Notes under the pieces: generated by a model
The model's input: the letters and a program-made list of their open reading frames with translations, nothing else
Told to the model about the DNA's origin: nothing
Database searches by the model: none
Shown: positions 3,249-4,371 of the stretch, piece after piece
Layout: each line of letters begins with the position of its first letter
How positions within the stretch are numbered: the first letter of the stretch is position 1
Position numbers and translations under genes: made by a program
Origin: Deltaproteobacteria bacterium
GTDB lineage: Bacteria; Myxococcota_A; Polyangia; Polyangiales; Houyiibacteriaceae
Direction: 5' to 3'
Assembly (NCBI GenBank): GCA_034670305.1
Contig: JAXMNT010000044.1
Span: forward strand, 1 to 62,563
DNA length: 62,563 nucleotides

Positions 3249-3546
3249 ACGGGCGCGGACGCAGCGACGGGGACAGACGCAGCGACAGACTCAGCGACAG
3301 CGACAGCGACAGCGGCAGCGGCAGCGGCAGCGACAGCGACAGCGACAGACTCAGCGACAGCGACAGACTCAGCGACAGCGACAGCCACAGCGACGGGGAC
3401 AGCGACAGACGCAGACTCAGCGACAGCGACAGCAACAGCAACAGCGACAGCAACAGCAACAGCAACAGCAACAGCAACAGCAACAGCAACAGCAACAGCA
3501 ACAGCAACAGCAACAGCAACAGCAACAGCAACAGCAACAGCAACAG
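3249..3546. repeat. Long hexamer tract (GCGACA to GCAACA)n
   Basis: About 300 bp of period-6 repeat. The degenerate 5' part grades into 16 perfect GCAACA units (3450-3545). Confidence 0.95.
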
Positions 3547-3627
3547 ATCAGCCACGGCCAGTAGCCTCTCCTTCGGAAGTCGGCTCCTTCATCCTTCGGA
3601 TTCGGAGTGACTGGGGTGGGCTTGCTG

Positions 3628-3763
3628 GCTCGGCGGGATCTTGATGGTGGCGGAGTGCTCGGGCGCGTCAAGGGTGCCTTCGGCCCCAGCCTTCGGAAGG
3701 CTGGCTTCGCCCTTGACCCGCCCTCCGCTCTCCACCGGGGGCGCACGGGGTGCGCCGCCGAGC
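3628..3763 (+). ncRNA. Candidate structured leader (RNA or ssDNA) upstream of the four-helix-bundle gene
   Basis: Nested complementary pairs: GCTCGGCGG 3628-36/CCGCCGAGC 3755-63; GGTGG 3646-50/CCACC 3732-36; GGGCG 3661-65/CGCCC 3719-23; GTCAAGGG 3667-74/CCCTTGAC 3710-17; CCAGCCTT 3686-93/AAGGCTGG 3697-3704; side hairpin GGCGCAC 3740-46/GTGCGCC 3750-56. Several CTTCGG motifs. Confidence 0.55.
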
Positions 3764-3799
3764 AATGTCGCTCTGGTGTGTGGCGCGTTGGAGGCTGTG

Positions 3800-4111
3800 A
3801 TGATTGTTCTCGAAACTTCTCTTGTTCTCGTTGGTGAGTTGCGCGGGGTGATGGCTGCTGTTTCTCGCCAGGACCGTTCGCTTGGGGAGCAGATGCGGCG
3901 GGCGGCTCAGTCGGTCGTACTGAACTGCGCGGAAGCGAAGCACGCTCGCGGGAAGCGGAGCGTGGACAGGTTCTCCATCGCATATGGTGAAGCGAGTGAG
4001 CTGAAGGCTGCGCTTCGACTGGTGCGGGTGTTCGGGTACGCGGAGGTGAGCGAAGGGACGATGCGGCGCTGCGATGAGGTCTGCGCGATGTTGTACCGGC
4101 TGAGTCGCTAG
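3800..4111 (+). CDS. Four-helix-bundle protein (23S rRNA intervening-sequence protein family, Avd-like fold), 103 aa
   Basis: GGAGG RBS at 3790-94, ATG at 3800. Family-like motifs LGEQMRRAAQSVVLNCAE, FSIAYGEASE and C-terminal VCAMLYRL. Confidence 0.85.
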   Translation: MIVLETSLVLVGELRGVMAAVSRQDRSLGEQMRRAAQSVVLNCAEAKHARGKRSVDRFSIAYGEASELKAALRLVRVFGYAEVSEGTMRRCDEVCAMLYRLSR

Positions 4112-4119
4112 ACCGGCTG

Positions 4120-4186
4120 CGAGGCCCGCGCGAACCGCGGGCCTCGGTTTCGGGATGCTAGGCCCGCGCGCGTGTCGCGCGGGCTT
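4120..4186. other. Two tandem near-identical GC-rich hairpins
   Basis: CGAGGCCCGCG (4120-30)/CGCGGGCCTCG (4136-46) and AGGCCCGCGCG (4160-70)/CGCGCGGGCTT (4176-86). Confidence 0.7.
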
Positions 4187-4371
4187 CGGGCTTCGGCTTC
4201 GGCTTCGGCTTCGGCTTCGGCTTCGGCTTCGGCTTCGGCATCGGCTTCGGCTTCGGCTTCGGCATCGGCTTCGGCTTCGGCCTCGGCGTCGGCTTCGGCT
4301 TCGGGATCGGCTTCGGCTTCGGCGTCGGCTCCGGCGTCGGCTTCGGCTTCGGCTTCGGGCTTCGGCTTCGG
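4182..4371. repeat. Hexamer tract (GGCTTC/GGCATC/GGCGTC)n
   Basis: About 190 bp of period-6 repeat downstream of the four-helix-bundle gene. Confidence 0.95.

Follow-up and report, generated by a model that had tools for sequence, protein, structure and literature searches.

We analysed a stretch of 62,563 nucleotides, called the window here, which is contig C44 (JAXMNT010000044.1) of a 7.93-Mb, 105-contig assembly with 68% GC (GCA_034670305.1) from an uncultured member of the Polyangiales. Between a gene for a DUF1552 protein (PF07586, 242 bits) and an Exo_endo_phos-like gene, whose score of 24.2 bits is just below the cut-off of 24.5, the window carries a 1.1-kb module (3249-4371) built around a small gene of the PF05635 family. 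A first-pass annotation, made from the sequence by a model, had described five parts between these two unrelated genes: a hexanucleotide tract, a structured leader, an open reading frame (ORF) for a 103-aa four-helix-bundle protein, two near-identical hairpins and a second hexanucleotide tract. By using Tandem Repeats Finder (TRF), profile searches and fold predictions, we found every one of them in place (Table 1). The upstream tract is composed of (CAGCGA/CAGCGG/CAGCAA)n. The 136-nt leader proposed at first covers the three-way junction and the hairpins that follow it, but the leader also includes another hairpin domain at its 5' end. Both 3' hairpins exist and are GC-rich (-53.4 kcal/mol together, z -3.46, 0/200 shuffles as good), but only the first is common to the related copies described below, since the tail homology of these copies stops at tail position 42 (blastn). 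This first stem-loop has the look of a terminator without a U run. As annotated, no reverse transcriptase, recombinase or other enzyme is encoded within the module.

Table 1. Parts of the PF05635 module, numbered from the first letter of the window.
Feature	Position	Strand	Basis or remark
Upstream hexanucleotide tract	3262-3546	+	TRF: period 6, 47.5 copies, consensus CAGCGA, score 272
Repeated cassette unit (leader, ORF, first hairpin)	3549-4153	+	Homology extent shared with other type-A copies (blastn)
Leader	3547-3799	+	About 250 nt, between upstream tract and ORF
Leader 5' hairpin domain, CUUCGG-type loops	3549-3632 (about)	+	Minimum-free-energy fold; conserved among type-A copies
Leader three-way junction	3645-3737	+	Outer stem, UCAAGGG/CCCUUGA stem, two capping hairpins
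Hairpins H6 and H7; GGAGG Shine-Dalgarno motif after them (about 3790-3794)	3738-3794	+	Fold
PF05635/TIGR02436 four-helix-bundle gene, 103 aa, sub-family A	3800-4111	+	Profile matches
First 3' stem-loop, 11-bp GC stem	4120-4146	+	Common to type-A copies
Second stem-loop	4160-4186 (about)	+	Private to the window copy
Downstream hexanucleotide tract (GGCTTC)n	4182-4371	+	TRF: period 6, 31.3 copies, score 299

By searching the source genome with the PF05635 profile, we found 48 matches, 39 of them above the curated cut-off, and their translations fell into four groups by sequence: A (14, including the window copy), B (9), C (14) and D (11). Groups A, B and C make up 37 copies of a cassette of about 600 bp, with a leader of about 250 nt, an ORF of about 103 codons and a 3' stem-loop. 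When the window segment 3547-4181 was compared with the genome by blastn, 13 other loci matched it at 85-92% identity, in alignments that started at query positions 3-16 and ended at 607, which delimits the repeated unit to about 3549-4153. The leader and the tail, both non-coding, thus travel with the gene from copy to copy. The 37 copies are dispersed and their neighbouring genes differ in strand between copies. In 34 of them the ORF is at least 100 codons long, while the other three are truncated, one by a tract within the ORF.

The protein encoded in the window belongs, as first annotated, to the four-helix-bundle family known from 23S ribosomal RNA (rRNA) intervening sequences and from Avd: it scores 51.2 bits against PF05635 (cut-off 33.8) and 56.8 bits against TIGR02436 (cut-off 24). 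Its AlphaFold2 model (pLDDT 96.3) has helices at residues 2-24, 26-48, 52-78 and 85-102, and the top Foldseek matches of this model were 2GSC (E 5.2e-4, TM 0.80) and 2RLD (E 6.5e-4, TM 0.86), two solved relatives with five chains (A-E) per entry, followed by Avd (4DWL). The nearest proteins outside the source genome are at most 47% identical. The atypical, G- and T-rich codons noticed at first were borne out, with third positions of the ORF made of G 0.48, T 0.22 and C 0.23 against C 0.52 and T 0.05-0.08 in two neighbour genes; likewise, the GC content of third positions is 0.72 in sub-family A against 0.85-0.91 in three neighbour genes. Within sub-families, the ratio of nonsynonymous to synonymous divergence (dN/dS) was 0.14 in A, 0.09 in B and 0.06 in C, at dS values of 0.42, 0.53 and 0.63, respectively, and it was low also among the closest pairs. 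Such ratios mean that purifying selection acts on the ORFs of A, B and C. We also noticed that leader and coding distances were discordant, with one pair of copies at dS 0.26 but leader distance 0.007 and another at dS 0.08 but leader distance 0.27, and that one cassette pair has identical coding sequences. Because of this discordance and of the identical pair, the mosaic relationships point to recombination or conversion among cassette copies.

Then, we measured how tightly the cassettes are tied to the tracts. Genome-wide, the source genome holds 683 merged period-6 tracts of at least 60 bp, which amount to 124 kb, 1.6% of the bases and 86 tracts per Mb. Such a tract lies within 400 bp upstream of 28/48 PF05635 matches compared with 3.4% of random sites, and within 100 bp downstream of 17/48 matches compared with 0.8% of random sites. 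By counting from the codons instead (tracts of at least 40 bp, within 400 bp of the start or 120 bp of the stop), an upstream tract was found in 29/37 A, B and C copies, 181-349 bp from the start codon, and a downstream tract in 19/37, 1-71 bp from the stop, whereas 0/11 type-D copies had a tract on either side. The upstream unit follows the sub-family in all 29 copies: CAG-type in A, CCGCTT-type in B and GCCGA(A/T)-type in C, and its orientation relative to the gene is constant within each sub-family. Downstream, the units are GGCTTC in A, CCGCTT-type in B and GCCGA(A/T) in C, so that B and C have alike units on both sides. For sub-family A, to which the unit class of the window's upstream tract is specific, 11/14 copies have the upstream tract within 400 bp, always CAG-type and in one orientation; a downstream tract, in most cases of the GGCTTC class, lies within 120 bp of the stop in 10/14. 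Furthermore, homology between copies starts where the tract ends, that is, the edges of the cassette are the edges of the tracts. Together, these data uphold the first-pass view of a small cassette as far as a discrete, multicopy, tract-tied unit is concerned; as it proposed, the tracts may be products or substrates of the spread of the cassette.

The tracts were also compared from their own side. Similarity to the cassette was found in 73/1253 tract flanks, and many of these matches were themselves tract-like; recognisable leader remnants, judged by eye from these 73 flanks, stand beside about 12-15 solo tracts. Tracts are no purer on the side facing the cassette (22 vs 17 of 40, Wilcoxon p 0.28). 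A 27-nt piece corresponding to positions 41-67 of the type-B leader on contig C1 recurs at 92-96% identity beside about a dozen solo tracts; it could be a small hairpin module that is carried along with them. In the window itself, further tracts of period 6, 12 and 18 occupy intergenic DNA with no PF05635 gene near (45381-45757, 48690-48765, 49240-49339, 49988-50204 and 53406-53622); the array at 49240-49339, an 18-mer in 5.6 copies, may sit within a coding frame.

The leader was examined by energy, divergence and covariation. Its core junction (3645-3737) folds at -56.7 kcal/mol (z -3.5, 0/200 shuffles as good), whereas over its full 256 nt the leader has only a modest advantage over shuffles (z -1.73, 10/200 as good). 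Since the antisense strand of the junction folds equally well (-59.4 kcal/mol), energy is no guide to the strand. The 150 nt before the start codon diverge by 0.10-0.12 between copies, four to five times below dS, and so the leader is under constraint. RNAalifold recovered only 18 pairs from a plain MAFFT alignment of 34 leaders, because indels between the sub-families misalign, and therefore an alignment fitted to a model was used. A covariance model (R1) was built from 14 type-A leaders; it aligned 29/34 leaders at E ≤2e-5, while five type-C leaders fell below this threshold, which was set to exclude reverse-strand matches. In the alignment of 29 leaders, 95.5% of the cells were paired vs 39-47% with slid partners, and 20/41 pairs had changed on both sides vs 5-9. 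Searches with the model also gave full-length matches that stand just before PF05635 genes of another genus and of another family. Adding five sequences from two other genera gave 95.4% of cells paired in helices 1-5 of R1, which belong to the three-way junction, vs 36-47% slid, and 27/41 pairs compensatory vs 9-14, with 0/500 shuffles reaching the observed values, so that the covariation that the first-pass annotation had thought worth looking for was found in this model-fitted alignment. For instance, in place of the UCAAGGG/CCCUUGA stem one lineage has UCAAGGC/GCCUUGA and another has UCAACCC/GGGUUGA. At several leader positions there are sense-strand G-U pairs, which favour RNA, or a single strand of that polarity. 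By this covariation, the leader is a conserved structured RNA of at least three genera of two families. With Rfam 15 there were 0 matches at the gathering score across the window and 0 at E ≤1 in 3540-4190. In the predicted fold, the GGAGG Shine-Dalgarno motif pairs with the 5' end of the leader. The type-A leaders at C28:~6853-7043 and C68:~36082-36269 share a GC-rich insertion of about 68 bp between the 5' hairpin domain and the three-way junction, which resembles a small nested insertion.

Type-D copies are organized differently: a hairpin closes the unit at either end, and the gene between them is preceded by about five (CCCTTG) units and followed by about five (GGCAAG) units. In comparison to the direct or unrelated arrays of 40-360 bp in A, B and C, these arrays are short and inverted, that is, complementary to each other so as to form a foldback, and the large conserved leader RNA is found in A, B and C only. 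Type-D arms matched 215 times on the left and 157 times on the right across the genome, and 60 left-right pairs with an inner length of 43-603 bp correspond to gene-less shells. Locus L001 on contig C14 has a full type-D cassette at positions 1238-1850 of the locus and, 1.3 kb away, a gene-less shell at 2538-2810 in which both arms remain, together with about 100 bases from the end of the gene. An arm lies within 300 bp of 153/210 contig ends, and the type-D element is thus the repeat at which the assembly breaks. The window itself starts and ends in type-D cassettes: positions 1-125 hold the 3' end of a type-D gene, the (GGCAAG)n array and a hairpin, and positions 62358-62563 hold a hairpin, the (CCCTTG)n array and the first part of a type-D leader. 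No rRNA was found beside type-D genes at the four loci examined. The words CAAGGG and CCCTTG, the latter being the type-D array unit, also make the central stem of the A, B and C leader.

The association was then followed in relatives, all of which are metagenome-assembled genomes (MAGs) of uncultured Polyangiales or Myxococcales. From 80 loci fetched, 30 without full flanks were dropped and 50 were scored, several of them coming from the same genome and thus not being independent. Upstream, a period-6 tract was present in the nearest 700 bp at 39/50 of these loci vs 1/50 in the next 700 bp outward, and downstream at 22/50 near vs 5/50 further out; the enrichment in flanking tracts for which the first-pass annotation would test the homologs is therefore seen in the relatives as in the source genome. 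Where both flanks had tracts, the units were on the same strand in 13/18 loci, on opposite strands in 1 and ambiguous in 4. The tract-flanked layout occurs also in four other families of Polyangiales; within the family of the window, one more genus has flanking arrays with periods of 13, 19 or 20. In another genus (g3, e.g. locus L049) the cassette contains two PF05635 paralogues in convergent orientation, and before each of them stands a long, near-perfect hairpin with the ribosome-binding site in its 3' arm. Stable synteny, as of an ordinary gene, would have spoken against the annotation, but of seven orthologues of the downstream gene in other genera, 0/7 had a period-6 tract or a PF05635 gene within 1.5 kb. 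None of the three outcomes that the annotation had named as contrary to it (no association with hexamer tracts, no conserved leader, stable synteny) was therefore seen. In these seven relatives, all without DUF1552, the DUF1552-EEP junction is not kept, and so offers no true empty site to compare.

At the level of whole genomes, random samples of four PF05635-less genomes gave 0 period-6 tracts of at least 60 bp in 1.18 Mb, whereas three gene-rich genomes had 13-38 tracts per Mb. A wider count was made with the pattern (CAGYGN)6 in 55 genomes of one genus, with gene counts coming from a protein query rather than the Pfam model and from many fragmented MAGs in which a cassette could be missed at contig ends. 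More than 20 pattern hits were found in 34/36 genomes with the gene and in 10/19 genomes without it, and copy number correlated with tract hits (Spearman 0.63). Thus, genomes with more copies of the gene tend to have more tracts, though with exceptions, and the strict proposal that tracts occur only where the gene is was rejected by these ten gene-less genomes.

How the cassette compares with known systems was considered next. According to a published account (PMC4990558), the ORF-bearing intervening sequences (IVSs) of 23S rRNA, found in Coxiella burnetii with its S23p ORF and also in Leptospira, are of the PF05635 family; the Coxiella IVS lies within the 23S rRNA, has a 28-bp terminal stem, is excised by RNase III and carries a decaying ORF that is probably untranslated. 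The cassette resembles the IVS, which is regarded there as selfish, in having a PF05635 protein, a small non-autonomous unit of a few hundred bases, a sporadic distribution and a composition unlike that of the host. In contrast to the IVS, the cassette lies between protein genes, has long tracts that do not pair, is present in 37 copies and has ORFs kept by purifying selection. It is not inside a 23S rRNA gene, with no Rfam family at threshold in the window and protein-coding flanks. The duplex energy between flanking tracts was no better than shuffled in 11/12 two-tract copies and much worse for type C, and between the two tracts of the window there is no inverted match.

The likeness to Avd of diversity-generating retroelements (4DWL, 8UB7) lies in the four-helix-bundle fold (TM ~0.72, Foldseek probability 1.00), but the identity is 14% only and the E values are 0.03-0.17 compared with 5e-4 for 2GSC and 2RLD. 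RVT_1 matched three times in the source genome (contigs C23, C10 and C67), never beside a cassette. One of these retron-like reverse transcriptase genes adjoins a long hexamer tract (C10:166937-170569, L062), probably by coincidence given the tract density.

Repetitive extragenic palindromic (REP) elements with their RAYT genes, and miniature inverted-repeat transposable elements (MITEs), are, like the present system, dispersed intergenic repeats in which the repeat type is tied to the lineage of the flanked gene and which have non-autonomous copies and shells. The cassette is like MITEs in its many similar copies dispersed in unrelated contexts (37 in all, type A being 85-92% identical to the window copy). 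Unlike both, its gene encodes no nuclease or transposase and its repeats are microsatellites, not palindromic units. Terminal inverted repeats are absent from A, B and C cassettes and present in type D; the edges of A, B and C cassettes lie inside repeat tracts, which masks any target-site duplication. Compared with integron cassettes, which have attC at the 3' side of the ORF and are arrayed with an integrase, the imperfect palindrome is here 5' of the ORF and the copies are dispersed. The period-6 tandem arrays are like prokaryotic simple-sequence repeats (PMC12699852), but here there are 86 tracts of at least 60 bp per Mb and they are tied to one gene family. A literature search, with supplementary files outside it, returned no account of hexanucleotide tracts in Myxococcota and no paper in which tandem-repeat tracts are tied to PF05635 genes.

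These observations show the module to be one copy of an enzyme-less, multicopy PF05635 cassette of uncultured Polyangiales, with a conserved structured leader and a 3' stem-loop, set inside hexanucleotide tracts, kept by selection and exchanging segments with other copies. On this we build a reading that we believe about as much as we doubt. In it, the leader would govern translation of the gene by keeping its ribosome-binding site within a helix, and might respond to the protein of the cassette in doing so. Having no transposase of its own, the cassette would be spread, converted and lost by host recombination or slippage through the flanking tracts, which would act as portable homology, and the Avd-like protein would bind nucleic acid, be it that of the leader or that of the repeats. 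As for the tracts, they could be the habitat of the cassettes, their product or their footprint, and each direction could hold. Several points weigh against this reading. Only 47/683 tracts lie within 500 bp of a PF05635 match and, because leader remnants adjoin so few solo tracts, most tracts show no visible tie to a cassette. The tract-carrying gene-less genomes of the 55-genome count belong here as well, one of them being 100% complete with 0 PF05635 matches by family search. Neither a movement of the cassette nor an empty site nor a target duplication was observed. In sub-family A the units differ by side (CAG-type vs GGCTTC) and therefore simple insertion of a circle into one tract cannot explain it. 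Values of dS of 0.4-0.6 mean that most copies are old, and each is kept by selection, which suits a gene family useful to the host no less than a selfish one. A scan of 3200-4500 found 0 promoters and 0 terminators, hence no promoter-like site for the gene. Finally, the covariation comes from an alignment fitted to the structure of the model, in about five related lineages whose sequences are not independent.

It is possible, although we consider it doubtful, that the tracts are instead made or kept by the cassette system itself: the arrays would be intrinsic ends expanded by slippage, and solo tracts would be what remains once cassettes have been deleted by recombination between their two arrays, or after action of the protein in trans. 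The type-D cassettes of the same genome, which end in short inverted hexamer arrays and whose 60 paired elements include shells from internal deletion, are consistent with this, as are the leader remnants beside some solo tracts, the unit classes that solo tracts share with cassette flanks (in the source genome and in genome G002) and the contrast in tract density between the sampled gene-less genomes, the three gene-rich ones and the source genome. However, many tracts are found in the 10/19 gene-less genomes of one genus, most solo tracts have no cassette remnant in their 150-bp flanks, and the tract side facing the cassette is not the purer one. By comparison, we give almost no weight to an ordinary paralogous family that happens to occupy the intergenic DNA of a microsatellite-rich genome. 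The sheer number of tracts in the source genome and the purifying selection on each copy would suit such an incidental association, but the enrichment is 8- to 40-fold over random sites, the tract-to-start spacing is fixed and the units are specific to sub-families; moreover, in relatives the tract density is highest beside the gene and about zero 700 bp further out, and a non-coding leader and tail accompany the gene.

An enzyme encoded elsewhere (transposase, recombinase or reverse transcriptase) might also mobilise the cassettes in trans and target or seed the tracts. This seems improbable to us, even though Avd, which has the fold in common, partners a reverse transcriptase in diversity-generating retroelements, the source genome has three retron-like reverse transcriptases, and a first comparison found a reverse transcriptase in 5/5 gene-rich vs 0/5 gene-less genomes. 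Over 88 genomes of the family this split was gone: gene-rich, near-complete genomes had no RVT_1 match (G081, G079 and G086, with 11 copies each, and G074, with 20), G007 had 12 reverse transcriptases for 0-1 PF05635 copies, and 0/3 reverse transcriptases of the source genome adjoin a cassette. The link with reverse transcriptase, the only enzyme class tested, was therefore rejected. Very unlikely, too, is a foldback of the rRNA-IVS type, in which the flanking arrays would pair in the transcript around the gene and RNase III would cut the stem. The gene family is that of the ORF-bearing 23S rRNA IVSs (PMC4990558), and complementary arrays do exist in type-D cassettes, but the tracts of A, B and C are not complementary (11/12 copies no better than shuffled) and those of the window are joined by no inverted match. 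Foldback between flanks was thus rejected for A, B and C cassettes, whose tracts do not pair.

Beyond the enzyme-less cassette that we favour, a bolder and rather unlikely proposal is that PF05635 proteins are oligomeric binders of short-period tandem repeats, with one subunit per repeat unit, in RNA or single-stranded DNA. If so, the arrays would be cognate sites that co-evolve with the protein (CAGCGR with A, CCGCUU with B, GCCGAA with C), the cassette would be a self-regulating protein-array pair, and the genome-wide microsatellite load of Polyangiales would be a dispersed set of binding sites or the debris of a protein-array system. The RNA-binding role of Avd would then share a single explanation with rRNA intervening sequences and with cassettes bounded by inverted arrays or by microsatellites.

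What the 23S-IVS/Avd-like four-helix-bundle family does outside diversity-generating retroelements is a long-standing question, and the source genome makes it testable: three diverged sub-families, under selection and each with its own repeat unit, provide a ready specificity matrix for binding. The leader, without a match in Rfam, is a candidate for a new class of cis-regulatory RNA. The type-D arms at so many contig ends explain why the assemblies of such MAGs break. Finally, PF05635 copy number goes with microsatellite load, and a density of 86 long tracts per Mb is rare for prokaryotes; the cassette thereby links the PF05635 family to the unusual repeat load of Polyangiales genomes.

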